Shown here: positions 22,775 through 62,885 of the stretch, piece by piece
Numbering within the stretch: the stretch's first letter is position 1
Layout: the number at the start of each line of letters is the position of its first letter
Source of the DNA: an uncultured archaeon
Lineage (GTDB): Archaea; Asgardarchaeota; Thorarchaeia; Thorarchaeales; Thorarchaeaceae
Assembly (NCBI GenBank): GCA_964558645.1
Contig: CAZLEV010000014.1
Span: 1 to 64,000 of the forward strand
DNA length: 64,000 nt
Direction: 5' to 3'
The notes under the pieces: model-generated
The model's input: the letters and a program-made list of their open reading frames with translations, nothing else
Told to the model about the DNA's origin: nothing
The model's database searches: none
Translations under genes and position numbers: made by a program

Positions 22775-22827
22775 GTCAGCAGACCTAAAAGCGGGGTCTA
22801 GACTCCTAGTAGGCGGAGAACTATCCC

Positions 22828-45281: not shown

Positions 45282-46448
45282 TTACTGCACCTCCATTGCT
45301 GCAGCCACATTGCTTGGGTGGAATTTCTTCAACACCTCAAGATAGTGCTTGGCCTGTCGGCTCGGTATCTCCTCACCGTTGTAAAGATCAACAGTTCTCT
45401 GGATAAGCCATTCAGGATATACGGTCATGACCTCGGGATTTGATTTGAGAAGAATGTGTTCTCTGCCCTCTTCATCGTTGATGCGCGTGACAATGTTGCC
45501 CTTTTCCAGCTTCTTCACTTGCTTTCTTAGCTGTGACTTGGTCACATCAAGGAGACTTGGCAAGTGTTCTGTCTGCTGTGGGCCTTCTCGTAGAATCTCA
45601 ATTATGTCATATGCATCGAAGTCCAAGAGATACTTGGTGAGCTCTTGAGCGTCTTCCCATAGCGAATCGGTGAGGTCCTTTCGAAGCCGGCCAACGTAGT
45701 TCTTGTGATATCTCTTCGCAGAGTCAAGGTACTGCTCTGCAACTCCTGTAGGCAGCTGACCCGTCTTCACAGCGCGGATAGTGTCCTGTGATATGGTTCG
45801 CAGCAGAAAAAGTGCACGCGTAAGATAGATGACTTCGGTGGAGAACCCTTCAACCCATCCAGTTGCGATGATTCCCATCTTCACCAGCGGTCTAAGAACC
45901 ATGTCTACATCAATCTTCTTTCCGACCTCTTCGAAGATTATCTGCTCTAAATCAGATGACTCGATGGTTCCGTTCTTCATCAGCGTCTGTAGAATAGACC
46001 TTCTTACGGGATCGCTGAGAACAGATGCCTGCCTCTGTTCGGGGGTCATCTGGGTGTATCGTGCCATCTGCCCGTATAGTTTCGGAACAAGCTTCTGATA
46101 TGCATCATCATCTGCGTTCAAAAAGATCTGGGTGGCAATCTCGGGCAGTGCATCCTTGTACACATCAGCATCCTCTTCGGGGCCGAGTACCAAGAACACC
46201 ATCGAAGGTTTTCCTTTTAGATGCATGTTCAATCCGCCGTAGTATACTGCCAGTTTGAACTCATCAAAAGCCAACGATGTAAAACCGGGCTTCTGAGACT
46301 CTTCAGTCTCCCCCAGTGTTGCTATGCCATAGACGCGCATGCTTGTCGTCGGATCAAGCCCTAATTGTAGACTCTTCGGTGTCTTAGAAGTCACAACGGG
46401 CCCGAGCTCATCATCCCATTTCAATACAGCCAATCCTTCGGGCACCAA
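45282..46448 (-). CDS. Longin/uDENN-like N-terminal domain plus tandem winged-helix domains
   Basis: GLAVLKWDDELGPVV resembles the uDENN FD..xGP opening. LSDPVRRSILQTL...LVKMGII and a second HTH-like region follow. Its stop abuts the giant gene start. Confidence 0.7.
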   Translation of the reverse strand: MVPEGLAVLKWDDELGPVVTSKTPKSLQLGLDPTTSMRVYGIATLGETEESQKPGFTSLAFDEFKLAVYYGGLNMHLKGKPSMVFLVLGPEEDADVYKDALPEIATQIFLNADDDAYQKLVPKLYGQMARYTQMTPEQRQASVLSDPVRRSILQTLMKNGTIESSDLEQIIFEEVGKKIDVDMVLRPLVKMGIIATGWVEGFSTEVIYLTRALFLLRTISQDTIRAVKTGQLPTGVAEQYLDSAKRYHKNYVGRLRKDLTDSLWEDAQELTKYLLDFDAYDIIEILREGPQQTEHLPSLLDVTKSQLRKQVKKLEKGNIVTRINDEEGREHILLKSNPEVMTVYPEWLIQRTVDLYNGEEIPSRQAKHYLEVLKKFHPSNVAAAMEVQ

Positions 46449-46732
46449 CTATTGTCTCCTTGCTTTGTAGCCCAGATACAGGCATTGTGGTTGTCCTAAG
46501 GTTTCGTTGTGCAATGTCTGGCCCCACTGCGCATGTTCGGACATTTCACCAAACCTAAGAGTATCTGGACATATTACAACGTAGACACTTCCAGTATCTA
46601 ATAAGAGAATCTTGGATATCCTACTCGCCGAGGAGTCATCTTGAGAAGAACGCAGCCCGTTTCAAGAGAGAAGGCATGTCAATCACCAGATCAAACGATG
46701 GCGAGGGGAGAATGAAGGATATGACCCAGAAT

Positions 46733-46766
46733 CGAAAAAGAGAGAACATGGGCCCGGGGCCCATGT
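46733..46766 (-). terminator. Hairpin plus pyrimidine tract
   Basis: ACATGGGCC/GGCCCATGT stem 5 bp after the stop at 46772, then TCTCTCTTTTT. Confidence 0.65.
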
Positions 46767-46771
46767 GTAGT

Positions 46772-47719
46772 CTACCACCAGTCAGCCTCTTCTTCCTTTG
46801 CCCGGGATTCGAGATCTCGATATAGAACAGTCTGGAAGATGAAGTTCAGAGGGCTGAGTAGCAGAGATACAATGAGACTTCCTACGAGAGCCAGTGCGGG
46901 ACTGACGAAAGCCACTGCCTCCACTATCACTAGGAGTACAAGGCTAACCACAAAAACAGCAATCGCCATGATGATCACTCCTCCCAGCGTGTGCCAAAAG
47001 GCACCTCCTGTAATCTGATAGGCCCTCTTGATGGCTCCGAAGGCAGATTGTTCCTCTTCAGCCACGACAACTGCGATTGTCGGAATAAGCCTGACCACGA
47101 GAAAGAGGGTGACCAACGCACCAACAAGCAAGACCACTCCGCCCAAGGCGATGGAATTCCAAGTTGACGGATCCGCGGGGTCGAAAGCAAGAGCACTGAG
47201 TAGCATTATGCCAAGACCAGGGAGGATCGGTATTGCAAGAATCAGACCCTGAAGAAACGATGCGGCAATCAGTGTGATTGCTCTGCTTACACCGTATGAC
47301 AACGCGGATCTGACGTCTCCTGCGCCGGGATTACCATAGTCTTGGAGAGCGAACTTGATTGCACCGCCTCCCACTACAGCGCCGACCAAGATACTGACAA
47401 GTGAGAGCGCTACTATAACTACGAGCAGCACGATGTCTGTTAGACCAGTAAGACTGAAAATCGAAACCAGCAGACCCAGAGGGTCCGAGAACACTAGTTC
47501 CAACAGATTGAATGCAGCTGCACCGTAGAGCGCATAGAGGACTACGAACGAAACTGCACTCATCACAACAGACACAATACCCACAATGAGTACGTAGCTT
47601 ACGAGCCTTCTCATCCAAAGGCTGAATGTGCGCGACACCAGACCTGCTACTCCGACCGAGTAATCTCGCCCAGAGGGTTGCTCAGGTGCCGGACCAGAAT
47701 CATTTCCTATTTCTACCAA
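46772..47719 (-). CDS. Polytopic membrane protein (GDPD-membrane-domain-like)
   Basis: About 6 TM helices. SAFGAIKRAYQITGG.FW and TVLYRDL motifs. Confidence 0.75.
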   Translation of the reverse strand: MVEIGNDSGPAPEQPSGRDYSVGVAGLVSRTFSLWMRRLVSYVLIVGIVSVVMSAVSFVVLYALYGAAAFNLLELVFSDPLGLLVSIFSLTGLTDIVLLVVIVALSLVSILVGAVVGGGAIKFALQDYGNPGAGDVRSALSYGVSRAITLIAASFLQGLILAIPILPGLGIMLLSALAFDPADPSTWNSIALGGVVLLVGALVTLFLVVRLIPTIAVVVAEEEQSAFGAIKRAYQITGGAFWHTLGGVIIMAIAVFVVSLVLLVIVEAVAFVSPALALVGSLIVSLLLSPLNFIFQTVLYRDLESRAKEEEADWW

Positions 47720-47877
47720 TCAACTACCTCCATATACCGATGCTTGTTCATGTATGACTTGGCTTATAGAACTTGCCAAAGATTGTCAGCACCCATTGCA
47801 ATCTGTCTTGCATCGAACATAGGACAATGCTAATCAGTGGAAACCTCGTATGAAGGATTACAACATCTTTCTGTGAG

Positions 47878-48246
47878 TTGTCCACAACGAGGAAAAAAAG
47901 GAACAGACGTGGTAGAGGGAAACATTCACCACGCGGATATTTGCAGCACAATTGGAGACCAAGGGAAACACACAGTCCGAGTGTGTTTTATCTTAGTGCA
48001 GAGAGGATAAGGACTCAGAGAATACCTGATAGCAATCTCACGTCCCAGCAGCGTAGATTCTCGGGGGCCAAGCCGGTAGGGGTCGACCCGGTACTCTGTG
48101 TCGGATGTGGAGCTTGTATCGATGCTTGTCCACAAGGCGCGATAGATGTCACAGGACGAAAAGCCCATGTTGATCCGTACAGGTGCTCTGGCTGCGGCTC
48201 ATGCACGCAGGTCTGCCCTCAAGGAGCCATCGGATGGGCGAGGTAG
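47878..48246 (+). CDS. 2x[4Fe-4S] ferredoxin-domain protein with basic N-terminal extension
   Basis: CVGCGACIDACP and CSGCGSCTQVCP. Confidence 0.9.
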   Translation: MSTTRKKRNRRGRGKHSPRGYLQHNWRPRETHSPSVFYLSAERIRTQRIPDSNLTSQQRRFSGAKPVGVDPVLCVGCGACIDACPQGAIDVTGRKAHVDPYRCSGCGSCTQVCPQGAIGWAR

Positions 48247-48277
48247 AAACCACGCAGGGCATATCCGATACATGAGC

Positions 48278-49234
48278 CTAACGTTTAGTGGCCCTACTCG
48301 GCAATGCACGCATGTAATAGGATGAGCCCCCATATTCGAGTTCCACAAGCTGGCCATCATCAATCAGACTATGAATAATGGTCCAGTCGGACTCGGACTT
48401 GGCCAGCAGTTCTCGAACCGCATCTATACGCATTGGATGGACTGAGGTGATGCTGAGCAGGTCCTCTCTGGGGTCTCCAGTTGAAGCAAACTCATTTCCT
48501 TCGTAGCCGATAAGGTGTTCTACACGGTCGGTTCCAAGCTCATCAGCAAAACTCTGGAAAGCTTGGTTTATCACTGACTCCGCGGGCGGGAACACTCCGT
48601 CCTCTGCAGGGGGCCTCGTGGGAATCGCAACATACGCTCTATCGATGCCCAGTTCACTCAAGAAACGTGCAGTCTTCCCGAACTCTCCCTTGTAATCAAC
48701 CGTATTGACCAGCATTGTCTCCGAGAGTATCTTACCTTCGTACTCTTCACAGAACCTGCGGATTCCGTCCATTACTCTTTCAGGGGCCAAGGAGCCATGA
48801 GGCCTGTTGACACGATGCCAGAGTCTGGAAGTCACAGCGTCAACTTTGATCGAAACAAGGTCCATATGATTTAGACGAGCTCGCACATCAGCATCCCAGA
48901 GAAGTGATGCATTAGTCAGAATTGCAAGGGGAATCTTGAAGTCCTTCAGCAAAGCAGCAGTATCTCCCAGATTCGAATCGAGAGTTGGCTCACCATCAGG
49001 GACGAATGTGAGATAGTCAATTCTCTCATTGTTTTTCTTGGCATTGCTGACTTGCTGCGTCACTTTATCCAAAATCCGTTCAGGAGAGTAGAACGATCTC
49101 TGCTGTACCGTCAGATCAGTGGTTCGCCCCAGCTGACAGTAGGTGCATGAGTAGGAACAGGACTTCGCGCTGATGTTGTTTATTCCAAGACTTCGTCCTA
49201 GACGCCTTGAGGGAACAGGACCGTAAGCGATCAT
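48278..49234 (-). CDS. Radical SAM Fe-S oxidoreductase (COG0731-like)
   Basis: YGPVPSRRLGRSLGIN, CSYSCTYC, DGEPTL. Confidence 0.92.
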   Translation of the reverse strand: MIAYGPVPSRRLGRSLGINNISAKSCSYSCTYCQLGRTTDLTVQQRSFYSPERILDKVTQQVSNAKKNNERIDYLTFVPDGEPTLDSNLGDTAALLKDFKIPLAILTNASLLWDADVRARLNHMDLVSIKVDAVTSRLWHRVNRPHGSLAPERVMDGIRRFCEEYEGKILSETMLVNTVDYKGEFGKTARFLSELGIDRAYVAIPTRPPAEDGVFPPAESVINQAFQSFADELGTDRVEHLIGYEGNEFASTGDPREDLLSITSVHPMRIDAVRELLAKSESDWTIIHSLIDDGQLVELEYGGSSYYMRALPSRATKR

Positions 49235-49315
49235 TGATGACCATTATCCAACCCTGGTATATCACTGAGAACGTATCAATATTGTGTATTGACACAAAAC
49301 TACACTGCCAGGATC

Positions 49316-50482
49316 CTATGGGGCCTGCAGAATAGATACCACCATATTGTTGCCAAATCCGCCGATGTTATGCGTCAGACCCACAGTGGGGGAGTCCACT
49401 TGGAGACCCTTGGGGGCCCTATCCTGCAGTTGCAGAACGATATCTCGAATCTGGGCCACGCCGGTTGCCCCCGTTGGATGCCCACGTGCCTTGAGACCTC
49501 CAGTAGGATTTACAGGCATGTCACCTGAAACCTCGGTCTTGCCATCCTTGACAGCGTCGATAGCATGTCCCCGGTCCACTATACCTATGTCCTCCATATC
49601 AATGAGTTCTAGTATAGAGAAGGCATCATGAAGCTCACATACATCTATGGAAGCAGGCTCAAGACTTGCCATGTCAAATGCTCGTTGCGCGGCTACTACT
49701 GTAGCGTTCATCGAAGTTAATGACATCCTGTGCTGGATCGAGTGATAGTCCGTGGCATGTCCGATACCCAATACTCTCACAGCTAGGTCCTTGAGGTCAA
49801 GCTGTCTGACAAGACGCTCAGAGGACAGCACGACAGCAGCTGATCCATCACTTGTCGGGCAGCAGTCATATAGCGTCAGCGGATCAGCAACGAGTCGCGC
49901 ACCGTTCACCTTCTCCACCGAGACCTCTTTCTGGAAGTGAGCGAGAGGATTCTTCGCACCGTTCCTGTGCGCCTTGACCGGCACAAGAGAGAGTTCCTCC
50001 CTTGTTAGACGATAGTCGTGCATGTACCTTCTGGTGACAAGAGCGGCTAATGCTGCAGGTGTACCTCCGTATCGAATCTCATTCTCGTAAGACATCATCT
50101 TGGCAAGTATACCTGATGCCTCTGCTCGACCAACCTGAGACATCTTCTCGACACCAATGATAACGGCGGACTCAGACATACCAGAAGCTATGGATGCAAA
50201 ACCTGCCTCGAATGCGCTAGACCCAGAGGAGGGGCCGCTCTCAACACGTGTTGCTGCAGCAGGTACGATGCCGATATGGTCTGCAAGAAGCGTGGATAGA
50301 TGGCCAATCTGTGTAAACTCATCGGGATTCTGGGTTCCCACAAACAGCCTGTCGTAAAGAACGTCCTCTGCCTTAGCATCTTGGATGGCCTCAAAAGTAG
50401 CCGAAAGCGCGAGCTCAAGGATTGACTCCTTCAGCACTCCGAATGGAGTCATGCCAACCCCAATCACGTAGACCGGTTCCAT
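49316..50482 (-). CDS. Thiolase-fold protein (archaeal type), lacking the N-terminal catalytic Cys
   Basis: ELHDAF, NPTGGLKARGHPTGATG, THNIGG. VESGPSSG stands in place of VEAACASG. Confidence 0.9.
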   Translation of the reverse strand: MEPVYVIGVGMTPFGVLKESILELALSATFEAIQDAKAEDVLYDRLFVGTQNPDEFTQIGHLSTLLADHIGIVPAAATRVESGPSSGSSAFEAGFASIASGMSESAVIIGVEKMSQVGRAEASGILAKMMSYENEIRYGGTPAALAALVTRRYMHDYRLTREELSLVPVKAHRNGAKNPLAHFQKEVSVEKVNGARLVADPLTLYDCCPTSDGSAAVVLSSERLVRQLDLKDLAVRVLGIGHATDYHSIQHRMSLTSMNATVVAAQRAFDMASLEPASIDVCELHDAFSILELIDMEDIGIVDRGHAIDAVKDGKTEVSGDMPVNPTGGLKARGHPTGATGVAQIRDIVLQLQDRAPKGLQVDSPTVGLTHNIGGFGNNMVVSILQAP

Positions 50483-50497
50483 CGGGACGTACCTCCG

Positions 50498-51031
50498 TCA
50501 CTCAATCAATATGACTAGGTCATTGGGAGTGACAGATGAACCCTCTTGAACGTTCACGTCCTTCACTACGCCATCCTTCGTGGCCTTGAGCTCATTGAAC
50601 ATCTTCATTGCCTCAAGAATGCACAACGTGTCGCCACTACTCACCTCGTCCCCCACCGAGACATGGACTTCAGTGATCTTCCCCGGCATAGGTGGATAGA
50701 CTCCGCCAGGCACCCTATCTGCCCCGTTAGCGCCGGTGGATAGTGTATCAGCCGTGGGTGTACTTGCCTTTCTCACGCGGGTAAATTCAACTGCTCGTTT
50801 TGTCCCATCGAACTCAAGATCGTAGCTATGTCCCGAACGGTTCAAGAGTCTGACCTCATGTTTCGAGTCGCGTTCGTTGACTGTCCATGCCTCACCGTCG
50901 TCAGGTGGTTGAGTGGTGAAGGTGAAGCTCTGGTCTCCGACCTTGACTACCAAGACCCCACCCTCGTCGAGCCTCTGGATGCTTACTTCAAGGTCCTTGC
51001 CGTCGATGCTAACGTTGTACTGCTGTGACAT
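50498..51031 (-). CDS. Biotin carboxyl carrier protein
   Basis: PMPGKI...LEAMKMFNE biotinylation motif. ATG at 51031. Confidence 0.93.
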   Translation of the reverse strand: MSQQYNVSIDGKDLEVSIQRLDEGGVLVVKVGDQSFTFTTQPPDDGEAWTVNERDSKHEVRLLNRSGHSYDLEFDGTKRAVEFTRVRKASTPTADTLSTGANGADRVPGGVYPPMPGKITEVHVSVGDEVSSGDTLCILEAMKMFNELKATKDGVVKDVNVQEGSSVTPNDLVILIE

Positions 51032-51044
51032 CTCCTCGTTCCTC

Positions 51045-52562
51045 CTACATTCCGCCCCGCATAAGCTCCATTCGCCCAGCCATGGTCCATGCTGAACTAC
51101 TCCGCCCCCAGCGTCCAACGCTGTAACCTTGCTGGTCATGAATACCTGCAGAAGCAATCTGCTGTTTCATATGAAGAACAGCCGAGATGATGGCCGCTTC
51201 GTGCTCCAGAGTCATCTCTCCTCTGAGCTTCCTCTCCGCCTTGCGTTTCAGGAAATCAAGTGCATATTGTGGGAATAATGCATAGCTCACAAGGTCACGT
51301 TCCTCATGAGGGATGTCCTTTAGAGCCTCCCTTGCCTTGGGGAGCTCTGGCTCAAGTAAATCAGCAGGTCTGCAATCGAGGGGTTCTTCATCACCAATTG
51401 CCTTCTTCTTGACTTCGGGGTCAATCTCAGCTGGCGGGCGACCGTAGTAACCTCTGATGTACTGCTTGACCTCGTGAGGAATCATCTGATAGCGTTCTCC
51501 TGTGATGACATTGAGAGTAGCTTGAGTTCCCACAATCTGGCTTGACGGGGTCACCAGTGGAGGGTAACCGAGTTCTGCACGGACTCTAGGAACCTCCTTC
51601 AGTACCTCATCATATTTATCGAGTGCACCCTGTTCCCTCAATTGATTGTCTAGATTCGAGAGCATACCCCCTGGAATCTGAAATCGCAGAACCTGAGGAT
51701 TCACGCCCTTGAGGCTTCCTTCAAAACCAGTGTACTTACCACGAATCTCCCGGAAATAATCCGCAATCTCAGCAAGCAGAGCCACATCCAGACCTGTATC
51801 TCGCGGCGTGTTTTTCAAGGCCTCAACGATAGACTCCGTTGCAGGTTGGGAAGTAGCAAGTGAGAGTGAGGAGATTGCACAGTCCACAACATCCACGCCA
51901 GCCTCGGCCCCCTTCATGTAGGCCATCGACGCCATCCCACTGGTGTAGTGAGAATGGAGCTGAACTGGAAGTCCAACATCGTCCTTCAGCATCTTCACGA
52001 GGTCATATGCCGCACTCGGAGAGATCAAACCCGCCATGTCTTTGATGCAGATTGAGTCTGCTCCCAGAGATGCCAGTTCAGCAGACTTCTCAGCGAACTT
52101 CTCAAGTGTGTGCACTGGACTGAGAGTATAACTAATACTGGCTTGAACATGAGCACCCTCATTCTTCACACACTTGATTGCGTGTTTCATGTTCCGGATG
52201 TCATTCAGGGCGTCAAAGATTCGGAAGACATCGATACCGCCCTCTGCAGCATGATGCACAAAGGCCTCAACAACGTCATCGGCATAGTGACGGTAACCCA
52301 CCACGTTCTGAGCTCTTAATAACATCTGTAGACGGGTCTTTGGAAGGGCTTCGCGCAGAGCCTCAAGCCGCTCCCAAGGGTTCTCATCCAGAAAACGCAT
52401 CATGGAATCGAAGGTGGCGCCTCCGAACATCTCGAGGGACCAGTAACCCACCTGATCAAGCTTCTCACAGATTGGCAGCATATGTTCTGTCTTCATTCTT
52501 GTCGCGAGAAGAGACTGGTGTGCATCTCTGAGGACTGTGTCTGTAATCTGCAGCCTTGTCAT
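51045..52562 (-). CDS. Pyruvate/oxaloacetate carboxyltransferase subunit (PycB / OadA / transcarboxylase 5S family)
   Basis: LRDAHQSLLATR, GGATFD, FRIFDALND, IKDMAG, HSH, QIPGGMLSN, VTPSSQIVG. Confidence 0.95.
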   Translation of the reverse strand: MTRLQITDTVLRDAHQSLLATRMKTEHMLPICEKLDQVGYWSLEMFGGATFDSMMRFLDENPWERLEALREALPKTRLQMLLRAQNVVGYRHYADDVVEAFVHHAAEGGIDVFRIFDALNDIRNMKHAIKCVKNEGAHVQASISYTLSPVHTLEKFAEKSAELASLGADSICIKDMAGLISPSAAYDLVKMLKDDVGLPVQLHSHYTSGMASMAYMKGAEAGVDVVDCAISSLSLATSQPATESIVEALKNTPRDTGLDVALLAEIADYFREIRGKYTGFEGSLKGVNPQVLRFQIPGGMLSNLDNQLREQGALDKYDEVLKEVPRVRAELGYPPLVTPSSQIVGTQATLNVITGERYQMIPHEVKQYIRGYYGRPPAEIDPEVKKKAIGDEEPLDCRPADLLEPELPKAREALKDIPHEERDLVSYALFPQYALDFLKRKAERKLRGEMTLEHEAAIISAVLHMKQQIASAGIHDQQGYSVGRWGRSSSAWTMAGRMELMRGGM

Positions 52563-52645
52563 TGTGACCCGCGGGTCATGTCACATCTTGCAATATAATA
52601 GCATCTGTCTATGATACACAAGCATCTCTCCTAGCAAAGAGGCTC

Positions 52646-52918
52646 TTACTCGAACTTTCCCCAGTGCTTTGTGATATCGAAATACAGCACAATCTCTGTT
52701 CCATCTGCAAGGCTGATATCCATCTGGTCGATCCAGCGATCATCGATATTCAGTAACGTCTGCCGCACCAGATTCCAGTCAGTGCCTTTCACTCCATACT
52801 TTCGGGAGAGATAGGAGTACTCAGCCTCGATGGCCTCCGTGTGACCAATCACGTTAGATATGACTATGGGGTCGTCTGTTGATGACCCATGTCCCTCGTA
52901 TTTCACCATCGCAAACAC
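52646..52918 (-). CDS. Small hypothetical protein
   Basis: 90-aa ORF with a protein-like pattern G.GSS.DDPIVI...AEY.YL...YFDIT. Confidence 0.7.
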   Translation of the reverse strand: MFAMVKYEGHGSSTDDPIVISNVIGHTEAIEAEYSYLSRKYGVKGTDWNLVRQTLLNIDDRWIDQMDISLADGTEIVLYFDITKHWGKFE

Positions 52919-53070
52919 CTAATCGCGCCTTGTAACTTGACTATTTGGAGTCTATTACGATAGATTCTCAGAAGCATTGAAACCGGACTAGCTTTGGCAA
53001 ATCCATGTACCACCTTGTCGTGTGGGCATCTACTGCAATATCGCTGGCACGAGGATAGAGGTTCTGGTCT

Positions 53071-53121
53071 TGAAGAAAGAAAAAAGAGAGGAGAACTCGA
53101 ACCCCTGAGATGGGGCTCGAG
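53071..53121 (-). terminator. Hairpin plus pyrimidine tract
   Basis: Minus strand CTCGAGCCCC-ATCTCA-GGGGTTCGAG (one G.U pair), then TTCTCCTCTCTTTTTTCTTTCTT. Confidence 0.7.
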
Positions 53122-53135
53122 CACAGAATGTGAAA

Positions 53136-53936
53136 CTATCTACGCTTGATGACCCAGAAGATTGCCACAACCGCCACAATGCCGATTGCGAGCAACAGAA
53201 GTCCACCACCGTCACCAGGAACTAGAGAACCTTCTGCCAGATTCGTGTACGCCACGTACACAGGATCCTGTTGAACTCTCAGACCGTTCCAGTCCGGAAA
53301 GGTCACCGAGTACCACCATTGACTGCTATGGAATGCAGTCTGTGCGTTGGTAACAAGATGCTGTGGACTATTGTAGGTATTCCTGACCTGAGCAGATAGG
53401 CCATAGGCCATGTGAGCGAAGAGGAATGCAGACAGGGGTGCTTGCCATGCTATGAGCAGGAAGTCCCCAGGATTCGTAGCCAGCAGAGCATTCAGAGCAT
53501 TGACTCCCTGCAAGACTGTGATTCCGCTTGTTTCGTTTATCAGGTCGTATTCTCTACCTAGACCGATGTCGAAGGCACGCTCCTGATCATCACCAATCGT
53601 TATGGTCAGGTTGTCATCCAGCAATTCCGTGCTGGTCGGAGGAGTAATCTTGTTTCCACTTGAGCTGCGGGTCACGTTGTAGTTGCTCTCAAAGGTCGAG
53701 AGATAGTGAACCGCACTTATCGCCATGCTCTCGCTAATGACCTCCGAGGGGTCCTTGTCCTGAAAACCCATCCGAACGCGATTTACCTGTCCTATGGTAT
53801 AGACGGTCTCAGCGTGTACCTCGCCCGTTGTCTGATCAATCTGGATGTCATATTCAATGACTATCTCGCTGAACAGCACAGTCATGAACGGGAACAGAAG
53901 GCTGAGCCAGAAGCCACCCTGGGCTGAAACAACCGT
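53136..53936 (-). pseudogene. 3' fragment of a C-terminally anchored surface protein gene, truncated by the TnpB-like element
   Basis: The frame stays open upstream of ATG 53885 (TVVSAQGGFWLSLLFPF) until TGA at 53937-53939 inside the tnpB 3' flank. It has a C-terminal TM plus KRR, but no signal peptide and no room for a promoter. Confidence 0.7.
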
Positions 53937-54040
53937 TCATTGTAAGTTGGACAAGCTTGGACATCAAGCAGTCCGTCCAGGAGCGGCACTGGACTGGTGA
54001 TTGTGCACGTGAATGATGTTTCGTGCCGCATTCACATCGG
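53935..54040 (-). ncRNA. Putative omega/reRNA scaffold and element right end overlapping the tnpB 3' end
   Basis: Minus-strand stems GTGAATG/CATTCAC, GTCCAG/CTGGAC and CAGTCC/GGACTG, tandem TGTCCAA, ending TTACAATGAAC where the host frame resumes. The position matches known TnpB guide-RNA loci; the 5' boundary is unknown. Confidence 0.5.
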
Positions 54041-56123
54041 CATGGAAGTGCTCCTCACACCTCCCACAGTAGAAGTACTCCCCACCCCTTCTCTCCCTCG
54101 TGGAACTCTCATGCTCCACCCGGACTCCCCGCCCCCCACAGACATGGCAGGTCTGAGAGGTCCACGCCGGGCTCACCGTCCAGATCCCACCGTAGCGGTG
54201 GCCCAGAGTCTGCCGCATGTACCGTATGGTGTCCAGCACCTTGGACCAGAGATTGTTCGATAGCCGCCACGAGTGAGTGCCATAGCCCCTGGGCGGCTGG
54301 TAGTTTTTGAGGTTCTCCAGATACAGGGTCTTGACCCCGTGGCGCTCACAGAACCAGACGGCCTCTGACGCAATCTGTCGGGCTATCTCCCTGTCCAGCC
54401 TGCGAATCTTGCGCCAGATGGCTGCAAGACGACGCTCCTTCTTCCTCAGATGCCCGGGCCTTGGACAGTCCTCCCCGTGCTTCTTCTCCCAGTTGTTCCG
54501 CATCAAGGCCACTCTCGATGACAACTGCCGGGTCTGCTGTCGGAGAAGATCCCTCTTCTCGACCAGCCCTTCAAGAGAGATGAGCTCATCGACATACTCT
54601 TCCTCACCATCTCTCACCGAGAGCACGATAGGCACACGGATTCCTCGGTCGGCACCGGCTCTCCTGTTGTAGTGCCGTTCACCCAGGACCGCATCTACCA
54701 TCTCTCGAGTTGGCGGGAGGAAGGGGATCTGGAGTTCTACTCTGTGCTCACGAAGCAAGAGGCGAGGTGGGCCGCAGGTTCTGGACTTCCTGAGCTGCTG
54801 CACCTTCTCCTTCAGTTGTGCAAGCTGCTCAGGGTCCGCATCCTTTCGGTTTCTCCACTTCGCCAACTGGTAGGTAGTATGCTGGAGTTCGATGGTGTTC
54901 ATGAGCTGTTCGTGTTGATCCTCGAACCGCACGGCCCGGAATCGCAGCTTCTTGGCTCGCAGGTGCTTCCCAGCTCGCTCTGCCTCATCGCCCTTCATCC
55001 GGTCCTTGACGGCAGCCCGTGGGAGCCAGTCCAGAAACCTGAGGCCAAGGGTTCTGACTCGGAAGGGCGAGGCATCATGCTCCGCTCCCTCCATCGCCTC
55101 TGGCAGCTTCAGGAAGAACAGCACCTCGTTCTCCTTCTCCAAGTCCTGTGAGTACCAGTAGCCCTGACCGGGAGAGTTCTCGGTGCTTGCTGAGAAGTCC
55201 TCGGTGTGGGAGTACATCCTCGGGACCTTGAAGGGATAGCCCTCCGTGGTGAACTGATGAAGGAGGGCCTGAACGGAAGCCATGGCCTCTGAGCACTCCT
55301 TGTTATCTTTGACGTACCGTCGAACACGGCGCCGCTGCGATGGTCTGGAACCAAGGGGCTCTCCGCGTTCGCTCAGGATGTGCTCATCGAGAGCTCGACG
55401 AAGCTGCTTCAGAACAGAGAGGGCGTAGTAGTAGCCTGAACCATTGTTCTTCGTGCTCTCGCATCTGGAGCGCAGATCTTTTACCATGTCCGAGGGGATG
55501 TATTTGTTCTTCAGTAATCGCAGAAGAGTATCCTGTTCCTCATTGAGAAGTCCGATAGCTGTCTTCATGAGCTGACGCCGTAGCCAGTTGGACTGGATGA
55601 TCCGAGCCGCCTGCTCCAGGACGTTCCGGTAGAGTCTCTCGAAGCACTGCTTGCTGATATCGGGATTGTCCTTGTATGCAAGATACTCCTCCTTCTTCAA
55701 CAGGACATATCCCTGTCCTCGATAGGAGTTCAGCTCGTCTCCAAGGAAGTCAATCCGTTCACGGGAAGCATACACACGCTCGAGAACGAGATTCACGAGC
55801 TCTACATACTTCTCGAAGTATCGACCCAGAAGAGAGAGGTCCACATCCCTGACCTTTCGCCCGGTAGCCGCCTCGATATCTTTTCGTACAGGTTCAGGAC
55901 TCCAGCGGCGAAATCGAGGATCGGGTCGCTTCCCTTTCCCCTTCGTGTTCACCTCTCTATCTACCGAGCAGAGGGTGAACGACTGTACCAGATACTTCAG
56001 TCCCGTATTCTGATGCGCGGTTGATGGAAACAATATAAGTTTGCCATCCATTGTGAGATGCTTCTGGGAATCATCAGACTCCTCTTGCTTCCGGGGACGG
56101 CGCCGGACTACCTTGGTCATCAA
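53964..56123 (-). CDS. tnpB: Large TnpB/Cas12-like RNA-guided endonuclease (719 aa)
   Basis: RuvC-I AGADRG, bridge-helix-like WRKIRRLDREIARQIA, RuvC-II LYLENL, VSPAWTSQTCHVCG...YFYCGRC zinc finger, RuvC-III HADVNAARNI. All three catalytic residues are present. Confidence 0.92.
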   Translation of the reverse strand: MMTKVVRRRPRKQEESDDSQKHLTMDGKLILFPSTAHQNTGLKYLVQSFTLCSVDREVNTKGKGKRPDPRFRRWSPEPVRKDIEAATGRKVRDVDLSLLGRYFEKYVELVNLVLERVYASRERIDFLGDELNSYRGQGYVLLKKEEYLAYKDNPDISKQCFERLYRNVLEQAARIIQSNWLRRQLMKTAIGLLNEEQDTLLRLLKNKYIPSDMVKDLRSRCESTKNNGSGYYYALSVLKQLRRALDEHILSERGEPLGSRPSQRRRVRRYVKDNKECSEAMASVQALLHQFTTEGYPFKVPRMYSHTEDFSASTENSPGQGYWYSQDLEKENEVLFFLKLPEAMEGAEHDASPFRVRTLGLRFLDWLPRAAVKDRMKGDEAERAGKHLRAKKLRFRAVRFEDQHEQLMNTIELQHTTYQLAKWRNRKDADPEQLAQLKEKVQQLRKSRTCGPPRLLLREHRVELQIPFLPPTREMVDAVLGERHYNRRAGADRGIRVPIVLSVRDGEEEYVDELISLEGLVEKRDLLRQQTRQLSSRVALMRNNWEKKHGEDCPRPGHLRKKERRLAAIWRKIRRLDREIARQIASEAVWFCERHGVKTLYLENLKNYQPPRGYGTHSWRLSNNLWSKVLDTIRYMRQTLGHRYGGIWTVSPAWTSQTCHVCGGRGVRVEHESSTRERRGGEYFYCGRCEEHFHADVNAARNIIHVHNHQSSAAPGRTA

Positions 56124-56314
56124 TCGTGCACCTCTCTTCTGTCTGGGTCTGATAATATAATCTCATGAACCAATATAAGTTTATCAAGACGAAAAGGCAA
56201 TTAGAGCATTATGAAGCCTATTTCGCTTCTATAAGGCTCTCATAACTCTTTTCTTTTCTCTGTTTGGTCACAGTCTATTTATAAGTAACTTTGACTTTAG
56301 ACTCTAGAAGTATC
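56124..56314. promoter_or_regulatory. AT-rich divergent promoter region with a long imperfect inverted repeat
   Basis: TTTATAAG at 56278-56285, about 30 bp before ATG 56315. TTATA-type boxes on the minus strand near 56152-56178. Inverted repeat at 56203-56240. Confidence 0.55.
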
Positions 56315-59300
56315 ATGGGACGCAGACCGAGATTGCTTCGCCCGAATGCTGTGCTAGCGAGAGCGAAGCATGCTGGTCTCATGGCCCTTGTCAACCTCCT
56401 TGGCCCTAGAGCCAGTGGCGACCTCGTGAAGTACTACCGTTCAACAACAAAGATGTGGGATGCCGTTCGATCTGCTCTTCGGGCTCAGGGCGGAGAGCGA
56501 GAGGACTACCTGGTTCTTAACGACACGGAGCCAAACATGCGGAAGTCCTTTCTCCAGTTCCTGTGGCACAGCACTGTACCCTACGGCAACAAGGAGTTCA
56601 AACGGGTCTACGACTGGACTGAGGGTACGGTGGGGCCGCTCAATGTCCTCTTGAACTACGCGGGAGCACGACTAAGGGACCTGGCAATGACGCGGTATCC
56701 CTTTCCTGAACCACGGGTCTTCCAGATAGCAAGGTTCCCGGATGGCACGGTGAGGGTCTATTCTCTAGCCCTCGTCAACCGGCTGAAGGCAAAGGGTCTG
56801 TACCCACCAAGTGACTTCGGCAAGAACACCGAAACCTCCTGGAAGGCGGGCTACAGCGGGACAACAAAGACTCCACAGGTCTACCTTGCGCACCCCACTC
56901 TCCCAAGCCTTGATTTTGTCGATATGATACGCGCCCACGTTGTCGAGCTCTGCAGACAGTGCTTCATCTACAGTGTTCCTCGCACTGAGGCCCACCGCTA
57001 CATCCGACTCCTGGTCTACCGGCTGCGACCCTTCCTCGACTGGGTCTACACTGAGAGGGCCACAGGCCGACCCAACTTCAACCGGGATGCCAACAGGGAA
57101 CTCCGAGAGATCGTACTGGAGATCAGAGCGTTGTACGGACTTCATGCCGGGCAGAGACAGTCGATCACTCGGTCCCTAGATATACCATCGCCAATCACTC
57201 TTGGGGATATCCGTAAGGCGGTAAAATGTCTCCCGCAAAAGACGGTGGATGAGGGCGAGATGACACTCTATCAGAGCATGAAGGACCAGATCGATGCCGG
57301 GACTGTGGTGGAACGGGATGCCGACAAGCTCACTGACCAGCTCTCCTCATCGACTTCACAGGAGGGCAACCGCTGGCACAGGATCCTCCTCTCGGGCTTC
57401 CACCACCCTGCCTCACTGAAGCAGGTGGTCTTTGCCGGGGACACCATGTTGGACCAGCCCTCCTCCGTCTTGGCTGTCGCAGAGCTTCCCGTAGACTCAC
57501 GACGGGGACAGGCTGACCTCGTGTTCTTCCTCCGCCGAGAGCTCGAGAAGCGGACCATCTGGACACCGATCATGATTCTTGAGGTCAAGACCAAGAGTGC
57601 CTTCGATATCAACCTCTACGGTGTTGAGGTGGGGAGCAGAGAGGAGAACGAGTATGCGCCCGCCTTCTTTGCGTGGAAGAGGGCACTCACAGGGGGCGAG
57701 TGGAATGCATTGCTCACATCACCGCCGAAGAAGAGCACAAAAGGTCAGCTCGATGCGTACGAACAGGCCATCATCAGGGAGTACAAGCGCACGGCGGACT
57801 TCGACCCGACACCGCCCACCTCTCTCTGGAAGGGGGTCATCGTCCTGGATGCTGACCAGATTCCCATTGATGCATACTCAGCATTTCAGACTCTCATCGA
57901 AAACCTGCTGGTGGAACTGACAGGTGACACTTTCCAGGCCCCACCAAAGACTATCTCACAGGTGCTTGATACAGACAGTATCTTGCCTTCTCCCCGGGTG
58001 GCGCTGCTCCTTCTGCCAGACGCAGGCCCTGATAGAATCCTCTCTCAGAGAGCCCCTCCGGCAGAGTTGGTCTCCGAGGACCCCTTTGCGGATCGCATTA
58101 CAGACGACCGCATACTCACAGTCTACGTGTCCGTTCCCTCCCCGACATCATCAGGTAAGACGTCCGCATGGCAGTCGTCCAACTGGCACCTTCTCCACCA
58201 CATCAGAGAGTGCAGAGAGGCCTCATCGCAAGAGATAGGTGTGTTCTGGCTGGATCTCATGGGGGACTACCAGACGGCTCAGCTGGCCAATCTACGGTTT
58301 GGACTTGACAGACTCCTTGCCGAGAGGAAGATATCCCGGCAGGAACACGGCGAGCTGGTCGCCGAGGTGGAGGATATCTCCTTCGTTGACCTTCATGTTC
58401 ACACAGAGAAACTCCTGCGGGGCGAGAACGATTCCATAGAGGGCATGCTAACCACTATCTGCAATGCTGTTGAAACCGAGGTCGAGAAGATCATCATCAT
58501 CGATGGGTGGGACGAACTGAGTAAGATGGTTCCCAATCATTCTCGTCATCTCCTACGCGCCCTGGAAGTGCAGCTACTGGATACGCTCCCCTCGACAGAC
58601 ACGAACATCATCTGGATCGATACCGGGACCGAGGACACCCTGACCTCCGCAGACTGTCAGCGAGGATGCATCAAACCTCTCCGCCATGACTCTCCCCGCA
58701 GGACGCACCTCGACGAGGTGATCTATAACCTCCCGTCCCCTCCGCGCGTCTTCGGCAACCTGTCCCCCTGGCGTGAGGACATACGAGTCATTGTTCAGGA
58801 CACCCCCACATCGGCACCCCCATGGAGAACCACCATCCACGTCCCTCACCTTTTGGGTGCAGCAGAGCGATTCCGGGGGGCCTCCTCGAGGCATGGTTCA
58901 CTCTCACAGGATGATGTGGCAAGGTTGGAGGTGAACGACTCCAGGATGTACGCGCGGAACATCAACCTCTCCTCCATCCAGTCCGGGCTGGGGAACCTAA
59001 CCATGGACACGCTCGACAACGTCATGGAACAGTCCTGCAGTCTGGTTCCGAGTCTATGCCGTGCGAGAGACGGCCAAGAACAGCAGCCGCAGGAGGCACT
59101 GGAGATTCCGCAGATACTGGTGCAGGGTATCAGCTCTGCCAGGGCAAGTACCCAGCGGCAACGCCTCCGGTTCCAACCGGCTCGACCGCCTCCAGACCCC
59201 GTACGCTCTAAGGACAGGTATGTGGAGTCTGGGAAGATCACACGGCGGTGGTTCTATGAACGGAACCCCACACCCCGGCCTGAGATACCTGCCCGGCCTC

Positions 59301-61939
59301 GTAGCCTCTGTCGCCCACCAGTTCCTTCTGAATTGGATGCTGTGACTCTTGACAGCTGTAGCACACGGAGATGGGAACTCAAGCGTTTCCTCACAACTGC
59401 AAGATACTTGGCAGCACGACCCCTAGGCAGGACCCTCAAGGGTGTCTGCGAGGAGATTGCCGACCTCTGTCAGGATGTCCTCTCAGACTCTGAAGACACT
59501 GGGGATGGCGATGCCTACTTGGATACCCTGTCCTTGGTCCGAGATATCATCCTCTCAGAAACATCCCTATCTCCGGTCTGGGAGAGACTCCGACCCGGAC
59601 GGGAGCAGCTTCTCGATCTCCTGAACTCTGACAACAGGAAACATCTGGAGACCATCACAAAAGAGATTCCGGATGCTCTTCTTCTCTATGGAAACAACCT
59701 GTTCCTCATGGTCTGCGCGGCTGCGCAGGAGGAGAACTCTTGTCACTACGAAACGCTGTGGGCAGCGCTGGCTGAGTGGACGCTCTACCAGATGGGACTA
59801 CGGTCCAAGGACAGTGCCTTCAAATCGAAGTATGACCTCTATTCCATCTACCGGACCCTCCGGTCCCGCGCACGGACTCTATCTGACCGGAACATTCCGG
59901 AGACCTCCCTCTCACAGGCATCCACTGGCCAGATCATCTGGTGGGAGGAAGGAGATAGCAGCAAAGGCCTCTTGGTGTTTCCTGACCAGCGGGGAGAGAT
60001 GGTCTCAGGCCTGGTCACCACCGGGGCCGATGCGTCTCTCCGACCGACGTGGTATCGATGTGATATGCATCCAGGCTCACTGAGGGAGTACTCAAGGAGT
60101 ACTCTAAGCTCGGAGGAACGGACTACCATCATGCTTTCGGATGTGGCTGAGCACAGGATACTTTGGCTGCCTACTGATGATGATGAGTGGTGGCCGTACC
60201 TCCTCACCCACGGATGCCCCGACAAGAACCAGCGGACCATTCCCTGGCTGAAACTCACTGATCCCTTCACGGTCCCCGATATCACCCAGAGTCTGCTCAT
60301 CCCGCCAACACCAGACAGTGACCCCGGTCAGGCCGTGGACCAGTATCTTCGCGAGCTTGGCCAGCTGGAGAGACCCGTCACGCCTGTCAAGCTGGAGGTC
60401 TCTGTGGATCCTCGTCGAGGGGTGTATGTGGTCCAGTTCACGGGGGATGGCATCTCTGTGGAGGAGGAGTTCAGCGACACTGATGAGCTGGTGGGGGTCC
60501 TCCGCTATCCCATCCGAAGAGGGGTTGGATACGACACTGCTGCCGGGGCGGTCACGTGGGACCACAAAGAGGACATCACGTACACGGATGACTCCCTGAC
60601 CTGCCTCATCCCGCTGGTCTTGAAGAGCAGGTTTCTCCCTGACCACTACTCCTATCCAGAGAGCTGCGCTGAGTTGTTGGCCGCATCGGCGGGCGGGGAT
60701 GTGACGCTGACGATATGGACTGAGAGGAGTGGAAGCGGGTTTCGGCTGCAGCTTCAGGGACTGGAGGATGACTCACCCCTCAGATCCCTCGAAGAGGCCT
60801 CTCCCTCTCTGTACGAGGTGGGGCTCCTTGCCGAGTGCGAACAGCTCATCGACACAAAAAACCGGCTTCGCCACGAGGTGGAGCTGGACGTGTCAGGCCA
60901 CTTGGACCTCAGTGCGTCACAGGTGGAACGGTATCCTGCCCTCTCTCATGCACTGGCAGAGGTGGATCGGGATGCCTTCGACTGGAGTCGTGGCTCGTGG
61001 GGTGTCCGGTGGAGCTATGTCTCACGCGAAGACCGGCTGACGTGGAGCATCGTGGAACTCTCCTCTCGGCGAGCATGGCTGGACCAGACCTATACGTTTC
61101 AGCCTGATCCTAGTTCCAGCGTTGATACCGTCCTCGAGGCGTTCAAGCAAGACGTCGCCGCTGTGGTGCCTCTCGGACATCTTGATGGGTTGGAGGACTC
61201 AATGGCAGAGCTCAGGGATGAGCTGGAGAGTCATGGCTGGAGGGACACACCTCCGACGTACGTAGGCGAGGTCCAGCACGGAGTGGAGGAGTATACCCTG
61301 GTCATCAGCAGGGTGGAGAGGGATGGCTCATTGAAGCGGGTGGAGGCCATCAGTCTCACCGCTGAGCGGGTAGAGGAACTCCTTGAGGTACTTGACCACG
61401 AGGGTTTCGAGGCCTGGCCGTACTCTCTTGAGAATCAGGGGGAGATACGGGAGGCGCTCAAGGCAATCCATGAGGGAGTGGATCTCTCTGACGTGGCCGT
61501 AAATGAGGACGATGTACTCGCGAGGGAGTACGAAGAAGTCATCACAGAATATAGAGAGGAGGTTCTAGAGGCGCCTGAGGAACTGAAGTATCTAGCAAAG
61601 ACGTTGGTCTACTACGCTCAGCTTTGCGCTGAGAGGGGGCAACCGGTGGAGGCGCTGCAGCTCGTAGAGGAAGGGATCGGTCTGCTCAGGGAGGAAGACC
61701 TGAGCGACATCATCGTCCTTCAGGCTCTTGCGAGAGGACTCATCCTCAGGTCCCACTGCCTCCTTCATCTTGATATCGAGAAACGAAACGAAGTCAAGAG
61801 AGATATGGAGGAGTCGAGAGGGCTCTTGACAGAGCTTCGAAGACGTGGAGAGAAGATCACTGCAGACACCCTGGCAACCAAGATGCGAGCCATTGAGCCA
61901 CAGATTCATGATGATTCAGACGGAATAGACGGACGTTGA
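56315..61939 (+). CDS. Giant (~1875 aa) protein with RecB-type PD-(D/E)XK nuclease, P-loop-like and C-terminal TPR-like regions
   Basis: AELPV...GQADLV...ILEVKT...GQLDAY; SPTSSGKT...WLDLMGDY...IIIIDGWDE; C-terminal LAKTLVYYAQL...ALQLVEEGIGLL helices. ORF track start is 56291 (TTG); ATG 56315 is preferred. Confidence 0.8.
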   Translation: MGRRPRLLRPNAVLARAKHAGLMALVNLLGPRASGDLVKYYRSTTKMWDAVRSALRAQGGEREDYLVLNDTEPNMRKSFLQFLWHSTVPYGNKEFKRVYDWTEGTVGPLNVLLNYAGARLRDLAMTRYPFPEPRVFQIARFPDGTVRVYSLALVNRLKAKGLYPPSDFGKNTETSWKAGYSGTTKTPQVYLAHPTLPSLDFVDMIRAHVVELCRQCFIYSVPRTEAHRYIRLLVYRLRPFLDWVYTERATGRPNFNRDANRELREIVLEIRALYGLHAGQRQSITRSLDIPSPITLGDIRKAVKCLPQKTVDEGEMTLYQSMKDQIDAGTVVERDADKLTDQLSSSTSQEGNRWHRILLSGFHHPASLKQVVFAGDTMLDQPSSVLAVAELPVDSRRGQADLVFFLRRELEKRTIWTPIMILEVKTKSAFDINLYGVEVGSREENEYAPAFFAWKRALTGGEWNALLTSPPKKSTKGQLDAYEQAIIREYKRTADFDPTPPTSLWKGVIVLDADQIPIDAYSAFQTLIENLLVELTGDTFQAPPKTISQVLDTDSILPSPRVALLLLPDAGPDRILSQRAPPAELVSEDPFADRITDDRILTVYVSVPSPTSSGKTSAWQSSNWHLLHHIRECREASSQEIGVFWLDLMGDYQTAQLANLRFGLDRLLAERKISRQEHGELVAEVEDISFVDLHVHTEKLLRGENDSIEGMLTTICNAVETEVEKIIIIDGWDELSKMVPNHSRHLLRALEVQLLDTLPSTDTNIIWIDTGTEDTLTSADCQRGCIKPLRHDSPRRTHLDEVIYNLPSPPRVFGNLSPWREDIRVIVQDTPTSAPPWRTTIHVPHLLGAAERFRGASSRHGSLSQDDVARLEVNDSRMYARNINLSSIQSGLGNLTMDTLDNVMEQSCSLVPSLCRARDGQEQQPQEALEIPQILVQGISSARASTQRQRLRFQPARPPPDPVRSKDRYVESGKITRRWFYERNPTPRPEIPARPRSLCRPPVPSELDAVTLDSCSTRRWELKRFLTTARYLAARPLGRTLKGVCEEIADLCQDVLSDSEDTGDGDAYLDTLSLVRDIILSETSLSPVWERLRPGREQLLDLLNSDNRKHLETITKEIPDALLLYGNNLFLMVCAAAQEENSCHYETLWAALAEWTLYQMGLRSKDSAFKSKYDLYSIYRTLRSRARTLSDRNIPETSLSQASTGQIIWWEEGDSSKGLLVFPDQRGEMVSGLVTTGADASLRPTWYRCDMHPGSLREYSRSTLSSEERTTIMLSDVAEHRILWLPTDDDEWWPYLLTHGCPDKNQRTIPWLKLTDPFTVPDITQSLLIPPTPDSDPGQAVDQYLRELGQLERPVTPVKLEVSVDPRRGVYVVQFTGDGISVEEEFSDTDELVGVLRYPIRRGVGYDTAAGAVTWDHKEDITYTDDSLTCLIPLVLKSRFLPDHYSYPESCAELLAASAGGDVTLTIWTERSGSGFRLQLQGLEDDSPLRSLEEASPSLYEVGLLAECEQLIDTKNRLRHEVELDVSGHLDLSASQVERYPALSHALAEVDRDAFDWSRGSWGVRWSYVSREDRLTWSIVELSSRRAWLDQTYTFQPDPSSSVDTVLEAFKQDVAAVVPLGHLDGLEDSMAELRDELESHGWRDTPPTYVGEVQHGVEEYTLVISRVERDGSLKRVEAISLTAERVEELLEVLDHEGFEAWPYSLENQGEIREALKAIHEGVDLSDVAVNEDDVLAREYEEVITEYREEVLEAPEELKYLAKTLVYYAQLCAERGQPVEALQLVEEGIGLLREEDLSDIIVLQALARGLILRSHCLLHLDIEKRNEVKRDMEESRGLLTELRRRGEKITADTLATKMRAIEPQIHDDSDGIDGR

Positions 61940-61948
61940 GAATATTCC

Positions 61949-62191
61949 TCATCCAAGAGTCTTACTTGCACCCAGTTCAATGGTGCGGGCTATCTGCAAG
62001 CGGTTCTTGTGAATGGCCGTGGTGATGCGGTAAAGCGACACGATGAGGCTGTTGGTCTTGTACGTCTCGTAGAATCTCTCCTTTTGCTCGCGGAGCAGGT
62101 GAGCCGCTTCAGGGAATTGGTATTCCTCTCCGGTGGTCGATACCAGCTCGACGAGCGCATCAGCAATCTGTTGGTCGATGGACGAGTCCAT
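61949..62191 (-). CDS. Small helical hypothetical protein
   Basis: 80-aa ATG ORF preceded by GAGGA, filling the gap between larger genes. Confidence 0.5.
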   Translation of the reverse strand: MDSSIDQQIADALVELVSTTGEEYQFPEAAHLLREQKERFYETYKTNSLIVSLYRITTAIHKNRLQIARTIELGASKTLG

Positions 62192-62289
62192 GATACAGCC
62201 ATCCTCTCAGACTCCTGCACTGGCCTATATAGACTGCGCCATTAGAAGGCGATATCGTTTTGAGTTCGCTCTTTCAATTGATGGGTATC

Positions 62290-62736
62290 ATGACTCTTGA
62301 ACGGGGAGTACTGGAGAGCATCTGCAGACTTGTGATGGAGCTGAGCATGAGAAAGCGTCGTGGGCTACACACCATGACACTGAGGAGGATCAAGAGGCTC
62401 TTGGAGACGATGGGCTGGTCGGTCATCCTAGAGTTCGAGACCTATTTCGACACGGTCATCAGATACAGGAAAAAGTTGTCGCGGGTGCGTGGCTTTATCG
62501 ATCTCCTTGCTCGGAAGGGAGAGAGGCAGGTCATTGCTGTGGTGTTCGACAACACCAACGTCCTGAAGTATCGGAGCATCGAGAAACTCCTGCAACATCC
62601 GGGGATGGTGATAGGAATGACCGCCGGTCGCTATGGGGTGGACAATCGGGCACGGATTGAACGGGTCATGCGGGAACGGGGGCAGTGGAGATGCTCGGAG
62701 TTCTGGCTGATAGAGGTGGGTCAGGAGAGGATTTAG
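62290..62736 (+). CDS. Basic protein with restriction-endonuclease-like (PD-(D/E)XK) pattern
   Basis: GWSVILEF...GFIDLLARKG..VIAVVFD...SIEKL. The expected second acidic residue appears to be V, so it may be inactive. Confidence 0.5.
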   Translation: MTLERGVLESICRLVMELSMRKRRGLHTMTLRRIKRLLETMGWSVILEFETYFDTVIRYRKKLSRVRGFIDLLARKGERQVIAVVFDNTNVLKYRSIEKLLQHPGMVIGMTAGRYGVDNRARIERVMRERGQWRCSEFWLIEVGQERI

Positions 62737-62885
62737 CGATTTGTCGGCGATTTCAGTCCCGTGTCAGAGGAGTGGGTTCTGGACTCTCAAGGTCGGCTGA
62801 ACCTGCAGTAATGTTTCATAGCTAGATTAGGAATAGTGGCTAGTCATGAAGAGGTTTATGAACCCTCAGGCATCTTTTCTAACAG

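Follow-up and report, generated by a model that had tools for sequence, protein, structure and literature searches.

A large Asgard TnpB in a probable IS607-family transposon remnant, with a compact predicted scaffold and a putative second guide matching its own promoter

We describe a tnpB locus of an uncultured Thorarchaeaceae archaeon (GenBank assembly GCA_964558645.1, here genome G000; completeness 92.8%), located in the first 64,000 nucleotides (nt) of contig CAZLEV010000014.1 (C14, which ends at 72772), a stretch referred to below as the window. The locus encodes an oversized TnpB head-to-head with a giant Asgard Cas1-like protein (aCas1) and interrupts a surface-protein gene. It is best explained as the right arm of a composite transposon of the IS607 family in Thorarchaeia, an account that we hold as a whole with good, though not full, confidence. 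With moderate confidence, we further propose from sequence comparison that this TnpB of about 720 amino acids (aa) uses a scaffold shrunk to about 60 nt, and that a second, intragenic omega-RNA silences its own promoter, which would place autoregulation at the transposon stage, before CRISPR.

The putative second omega-RNA begins inside tnpB (Table 1) with a segment that nearly copies the right-end scaffold and forms a CCGG/CCGG hairpin with an 8-nt loop, followed by ACAAT, and a 6-bp pseudoknot with the terminal GGATGG. Synonymous sites were fixed in tnpB codons 7-10 and 24. The hairpin stems were compensated, with 98.8% paired and five pairs showing two-sided changes. We compared the guide that follows with the upstream site of its own copy and with those of other copies, using 22 copies. 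Guide positions 2-13 matched their own upstream site in 82-100% of cases, most of these columns being variable; the match faded at positions 14-17, and position 1 was mostly mismatched. The agreement was 12.9/15 with the copy's own promoter against 8.9/15 with the others, and 12.1/14 against 8.65/14 for shuffles. Homologues showing this covariation had 42-100% identity. The match has disappeared from L143, in which a remnant of tnpA borders tnpB, and is weak in L142. At the window locus, the matched site at 56182-56171 may correspond to an archaeal TATA box. The promoter target is preceded by YTGNT and the insertion site by AGGGY, and comparison of the two suggests a target-adjacent motif (TAM) near GNY and pairing of the guide from +2 onwards.

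Table 1 Features of the locus; coordinates are window positions
Feature	Coordinates	Strand	Details	Basis
Second omega-RNA-like scaffold, intragenic	56044..56106	(-)	tnpB codons 6-26	Synonymous-site conservation, covariation
Putative internal guide	56031..56042	(-)	12 nt, AAACTTATATTG	Follows scaffold + C; identical to site in own promoter
Predicted internal-guide target	56171..56186	(-)	TAM-like TGAT 56186-56183; 12-nt site 56182-56171 over TATA-like box
IS607-type right end and predicted compact omega-RNA scaffold	53933..53992	(-)	60 nt	Conservation, covariation
Predicted right-end guide from host gene	53912..53932	(-)		Flank past conserved end
Large TnpB	53964..56123	(-)	719 aa from TTG; 718 aa from ATG 56120	Open reading frame list, homologues, model
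Host-gene 3' remnant	53136..53933	(-)	Last 265 codons of a conserved gene for a 449-aa secreted, C-terminally membrane-anchored protein
Asgard Cas1-like giant protein (aCas1)	56291..61939	(+)	1882 aa; likely start ATG 56315	Model, conserved residues

By analogy with Cas9 tracr-L, in which a natural guide sends the active nuclease to its own promoter (Workman et al., 10.1101/2020.05.21.102756), the internal guide most likely serves RNA-guided self-repression. TnpB carrying this 12-nt guide would bind its own promoter without cutting it, creating negative feedback, and it may also sit on its own start region. The repression known from IS605 works through a protein, Arc (10.64898/2026.09.24.754181). 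The internal scaffold and promoter match might instead be left over from an old duplication or a nested insertion and serve no function today, which we regard as very improbable. The region does code for a disordered, change-tolerant N-terminus, and chance matches are commoner in AT-rich sequence. However, the guide mostly fits its own promoter better than those of other copies, its identity is limited to positions 2-13, and the scaffold pairs covary, a pattern by which the relic reading is disfavoured.

The scaffold predicted at the element's right end combines a 4-bp CCAG/CTGG hairpin with an 8-nt loop, a GGAC/GTCC stem, a 6-bp pseudoknot between the hairpin loop and the terminal GAACGG, and a GG core at the terminus. 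Two TGTCCA repeats with 9-bp spacing lie in this end. Among seven G000 copies and homologous loci, the shared end ran to AACGG or AACGA and diverged thereafter. The next base was C or T in 75/75 distinct ends, positions beyond it were random, and no target preference downstream of +1 was found across these ends. Conservation to AACGG plus a pyrimidine thus sets the guide start at 53932 or 53931, not 53934; base 53932 (T), the invariant pyrimidine, may still belong to the scaffold, in which case pairing would begin at 53931. A sequence-only reading of this DNA had correctly taken the guide to be the flank leading into the interrupted host gene, but its proposed end at AATGAAC fell 2-3 nt short.

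Conservation exceeding coding needs set in at 53992, no more than about 60 nt from the end, which suggests a scaffold just that long, with a predicted 5' limit. Pairing held in 95.9% of cells; none of 500 shuffles reached this value, and slid controls gave at most 46.5%. On branches with good support, one pseudoknot pair toggled from C:G to G:C or back at least 4-5 times, and the pseudoknot paired in 25/26 tnpB-borne ends versus 11/21 ends without tnpB. This covariation, kept in tnpB-borne ends, supports an RNA rather than a DNA site alone. As in TnpB (OMEGA) systems, a structured, conserved 3' end with a pseudoknot is followed by a variable flank. An Rfam scan of 52.5-56.5 kb gave no meaningful match. 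It is plausible from the flank that the right-end guide is aimed at the intact host allele; no perfect GGG-adjacent target occurs in G000.

The same reading had seen a CRISPR-repeat-like scaffold end, implying a solitary Cas12-like TnpB whose scaffold end derives from a CRISPR repeat. In size and fold the protein does resemble Cas12f and larger type V effectors, and AATGAAC superficially recalls repeats ending in GAAC or GAAAG. This explanation is nevertheless largely refuted and scarcely credible, since the end is that of the IS607 family, its terminal bases form the usual omega-RNA pseudoknot, it is common to MITEs (miniature inverted-repeat transposable elements) and tnpA-bearing elements, and no array stands beside any copy examined. 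The reading was right that no array is nearby: nothing resembling the array expected beside a type V (Cas12) effector was found within 45000-64000. The CRISPR repeat of G000 is an unrelated 37-mer on another contig. Its arrays (G000:C4:50000-106000) have a 37-nt repeat ending ATTGAAAG, unlike the TnpB end, and at least 193 spacers; none of 193 spacers convincingly matches the element. A solitary TnpB was ruled out by the giant Cas1-fold partner and, in relatives, by an IS607 serine recombinase.

The assignment to IS607 rests on other copies of the same ends. An end profile recovered about 45 good copies in G000, of which about 23 are MITEs of 185-210 bp sharing the element's right end (e.g., L097, L098, L099). 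Their left end begins GGG(T) and bears 9-bp-spaced TGGACA repeats (TGGACA-N3-TGGACA), inverted at the right end. For one MITE, two relatives retain the empty site AGGG/tcac (stroke, junction) with no duplication; for most G000 MITEs, no empty site was found among the regions of relatives compared. MITEs could supply omega-RNAs in trans, though their pseudoknot pair is often broken. A matching left end precedes a decayed IS607 tnpA on G000 contigs C2 and C5; these two pseudogenes were found by NF033518 only, a PF00239 search of G000 giving nothing. In relatives, the left end leads directly into a full-length tnpA with a MerR helix-turn-helix (HTH) and PF00239, scoring over the NF033518 cut-off. 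Loci L077-L081 show the order left end, tnpA, giant antisense gene (aCas1), tnpB; the right end is present in four of them, L078 stopping at a contig edge, and the tnpA of L081 is truncated. Other relatives have tnpA directly before tnpB, and the same ends occur on elements without aCas1 (L142, L143, L145). No tnpA was detected in the window, as the earlier reading had stated. In a comparison set of 41 genomes, long matches were restricted to the window's own family.

IS607-family elements are known to target (G)GG, to leave no duplication and to carry 9-bp repeats (PMC6188088). Here, GG stands at both ends and in the target, without target duplication; 9-bp-spaced repeats near the ends are recognizable as sequence; and a serine recombinase TnpA adjoins the left end in relatives and G000 pseudogenes. 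The window copy has neither this recombinase nor both ends. We propose that the complete element, of about 8 kb, would consist of left end, tnpA, aCas1 on the opposite strand, large tnpB and right end, with aCas1 as a passenger or second mobiliser. Here an element inserted at AGGG/T, and empty sites of other copies show scarless insertion at the GG core. TnpB would process the 3' end of its own mRNA, as reported for omega-RNA (PMC10278001), into an omega-RNA whose roughly 60-nt scaffold ends AACGG(Y), with the flank as guide. By analogy with IS607 TnpB biology, element-free alleles would then be cut beside a G-rich TAM, favouring copy-back of the element. IS607-type systems have a TAM of TGGG and a scaffold ending UCGG (10.1101/2023.11.20.567912); the TAM here may be about 5'-GGGY, possibly only GNY. 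As far as the assembly shows, the window copy has lost its left end, tnpA and the 5' half of its host gene, and is with these losses probably stranded, unable to restore the host gene by excision.

Several other observations concern mobile sequences in and around these elements. L111 (G000:C5:222110-227012) is a 4.9-kb element with a left end, decayed tnpA, two secreted-looking cargo genes (795 and 233 aa), truncated tnpB and right end. In L081, the 11 bases past the right end are the same as those with which the left end begins (670-690 and 9290-9302), resembling a short duplication that other copies do not show. Many right ends of large-TnpB elements have an opposite-strand tRNA gene (Arg, Lys, His) nearby, its 3' end 45-180 nt away (L088, L090, L091, L114, L140, L141, L024). 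Segments of window 62034-63361 are repeated on C1, C15, C26, C27 and C32 at 77-96% identity; to the left of aCas1, the sequence looks like an island of mobile fragments. Outside the window, L166 (G000:C14:64941-65714) is a DDE transposase-like gene present in several copies in G000.

The host gene gives the junction directly. Congeneric genomes carry it intact, and in one of them (G001) it encodes 449 aa, its last 265 codons corresponding to the window remnant at 94% aa identity, with 50 synonymous and 15 non-synonymous codon differences and zero stops. Its first 184 codons, with a signal-peptide-like start, are absent at the window locus, and this 5' half was not found in the G000 assembly at its stated completeness. 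The proposal that TnpB interrupts a surface-protein gene, leaving a headless reading frame downstream, was thus borne out by an intact allele that is 184 codons longer at the 5' side and has AGGG just 5' of the junction. The intact allele reads GCAAGGG/TTGTG and the window TGAACGG/TTGTT; the GG at the junction is common to allele and element end, and this alignment shows insertion at AGGG/T. The upstream neighbours of the host gene are located on G000 contig C9, where they stop at 22470-23216 beside a remnant of a 560-aa TnpB tail, a layout indicating that the host locus has been broken and rearranged.

Some of these data weigh against our interpretation. Apart from G(-2) and Y(+1), the promoter motif YTGNT and the insertion motif AGGGY disagree. 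GGG is missing from several empty sites of relatives, which are noisier than the best one, and neither left end nor tnpA was found beyond 61939 on C14, the original element here being reconstructed from relatives. The omega-RNA 5' end could lie further upstream, where conservation is not visible. Over its first 8 positions, the right-end guide has 2 mismatches to the G001 allele, which is therefore not the actual target. The compared sequences also share kinship and are not independent. Most importantly, 12 nt of guide are enough for Deinococcus radiodurans TnpB (PMC10278001), and the internal guide might accordingly cut its site instead of repressing it. Actual cleavage of the promoter, leading to module swapping or loss of the left arm, would fit the frequency of deleted or rearranged derivatives. 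We consider it improbable: copies that are intact yet divergent retain the pairing, which tapers off beyond about 13 nt, as in repressing guides, and constant self-cutting should purge the match. Self-repression remains our preferred reading of the internal guide.

The protein itself has a disordered N-terminus of about 40 aa, a WED domain with a helical insert of about 80 aa (~366-445), an enlarged helical REC (~92-293), RuvC and a C4 zinc finger (PF07282, the zinc-finger domain of TnpB/Cas12f, E 3e-12), so that the RuvC D-E-D triad and zinc finger sit within the WED-REC-RuvC fold of TnpB/Cas12 nucleases. RuvC D492, E603 and D696 and the four zinc-finger cysteines did not vary in 110 homologues, and 491 aa precede RuvC-I. 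The best 120 homologues listed are 47-100% identical and mostly about 700-730 aa long, and those named are Thorarchaeota. The structure model (pLDDT 81) matched AsCas12f (Z 18.0), ISFba1 TnpB and Fanzor2 (both Z 15.2) and TnpB entry 8h1j (Z 14.5). The alignments to AsCas12f, ISFba1 TnpB and Fanzor2 span about 365-390 residues, leaving about 330 residues with no counterpart in Cas12f, ISFba1 TnpB or Fanzor2, namely the N-terminal tail, the larger REC and the WED insert. On each of these points the sequence-only reading stood up: it had described a 719-aa frame with intact catalytic and zinc-finger residues, about 490 aa before RuvC-I and membership in an expanded Asgard TnpB clade, and it had named TnpB, Cas12f and Fanzor for structural comparison, all three of which matched. 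These data support placing the protein in an expanded Asgard (Thorarchaeia) TnpB clade. By analogy, it is predicted to cleave DNA in an RNA-guided, TAM-dependent manner.

The divergent neighbour overturned the statement that no cas1 is nearby. aCas1 combines an N-terminal Cas1 catalytic domain (residues 5-250), a PD-(D/E)xK nuclease (D409, E431xK433), a RecA/KaiC-like P-loop domain, a long unassigned region and a variable TPR-like tail. In its model (pLDDT 87), the first domain aligned to Cas1 with Z 13.3 (root-mean-square deviation 3.6, 178 aligned) and to casposase with Z 10.9, and retained the Cas1-like conserved residues E80, H201 and D208/D211. Foldseek found the RecA-like domain alone; Pfam, PADLOC, NCBIfam and PDB sequence searches gave nothing useful, and the ESM Atlas only AAA_22 leads below 0.9. 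The ideas of an Avs-like defence cargo, a TnsA/TnsC fusion and attC-like cassette sites were dropped when tnpA, the left ends of the MITEs and the Cas1 fold came to light. The head-to-head arrangement with tnpB recurs in many relatives, and aCas1 is also paired with a second TnpB lineage of 545-590 aa (~560 aa). Pairing of aCas1 with TnpB in Asgard archaea was described computationally for two TnpB groups, Cas1H-Asgard-1 and -2 (Altae-Tran et al. 2023, PMC10691335). The window pair, a diverged Cas1 beside a TnpB with Thorarchaeota names among its homologues, is one of these described pairs and may belong to either group. The published GTTCACTC motif occurs in 9/12 of the 545-590-aa lineage and 0/39 of the large-TnpB lineage. 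Likewise, GTTCACTCA is not found downstream of tnpB in the large-TnpB lineage; as two groups were published, the window TnpB may still belong to the other.

That paper proposed aCas1 as a transposase said to replace the serine recombinase. An aCas1 integrase, possibly steered by TnpB as a Cas1-based RNA-guided transposon with leftover IS607 ends, would agree with the conserved E/H/D residues in a Cas1 fold, the association with two different TnpB lineages, the many copies without tnpA, and the ending of similarity between copies near the aCas1 stop codon. Several results make this unlikely. The window junction and the best empty site are scarless at GG, as for a serine recombinase. Cas1 integrases, by contrast, duplicate their target. 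Most copies show no conserved end or target duplication after the aCas1 stop, and L142, L143 and L145 have no aCas1 yet carry the same ends. Junctions in the large-TnpB lineage are explained by the ordinary IS607 recombinase, not by aCas1. A predicted complex of TnpB 40-710 with aCas1 1-275 scored 0.00 and counts neither for nor against this reading.

Further copies vary around this gene pair. In the 560-aa lineage, GTTCACTC lies downstream of tnpB and, inverted, at most 200 nt upstream (L082, L083, L093-L095; G000 C2, C10, C26). L116 (G000:C2:426246-432974) pairs an aCas1 of 1527 aa with a 561-aa TnpB of this second lineage; the pair has a tRNA-Gly gene on one side and, on the other, a partial copy of that gene's 3' part. 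An internal deletion derivative (G000:C10:1-1054) joins tnpB residue ~94 to aCas1 residue ~1660. Three copies (L156, L157, G000:C10:1040-1066; two probably one locus) share about 25 conserved bases at the 3' end of aCas1, which might be the tail of a tnpA or an alternative end.

Neither IS607 biology nor the pairing of aCas1 with TnpB is new. In the literature searched, whose coverage is incomplete, we found no report of a TnpB guide directed against its own promoter or of TnpB self-repression, of so short a TnpB scaffold, or of tnpA and aCas1 in one element. If our interpretation is true, TnpB would dose itself by a dedicated guide, a strategy documented to date in CRISPR effectors, Cas9 (tracr-L) among them, and the system would reveal how one nuclease keeps a cutting and a repressing guide apart. 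The idea that a growing protein takes over from RNA scaffold on the route from TnpB to Cas12 can be tested directly in this clade. The large TnpB is also a candidate editor, combining a scaffold of some 60 nt with a short TAM containing G, both predicted. For the role of Asgard aCas1, it bears on the question that junctions in this lineage are attributable to the IS607 recombinase.

Compared with known systems, the window TnpB shares the WED-REC-RuvC-zinc finger fold of the Cas12f, ISFba1 TnpB and Fanzor2 structures; unlike with Cas12f, no CRISPR array was found beside it. The element resembles the IS607 family (IS607, IS1535 and CboIStron; PMC6188088, 10.1101/2023.11.20.567912) in its MerR-HTH serine recombinase, (G)GG target, absence of duplication, 9-bp-spaced repeats, a scaffold ending CGG with a pseudoknot, and a flank guide. 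It differs from that family in a TnpB of ~720 rather than ~400 aa, an antisense passenger gene of 5-6 kb that separates tnpA from tnpB, a ~60-nt scaffold against 106 nt in AmaTnpB (PMC10278001), and a predicted second scaffold inside tnpB. Like the Asgard aCas1-associated TnpBs (PMC10691335), it pairs TnpB with a diverged Cas1, the two groups here being ~720 and ~560 aa; the GTTCACTCA tail published downstream of tnpB occurs in 9/12 of the 560-aa lineage and 0/39 of the large-TnpB lineage. According to that paper, aCas1 takes the place of the serine recombinase, whereas here tnpA and IS607 ends coexist with aCas1, and its main text describes no internal guide. Cas9 tracr-L likewise directs a natural guide toward the nuclease's own promoter; unlike it, the present case concerns a transposon TnpB, with the guide within the coding sequence and repression predicted from sequence.

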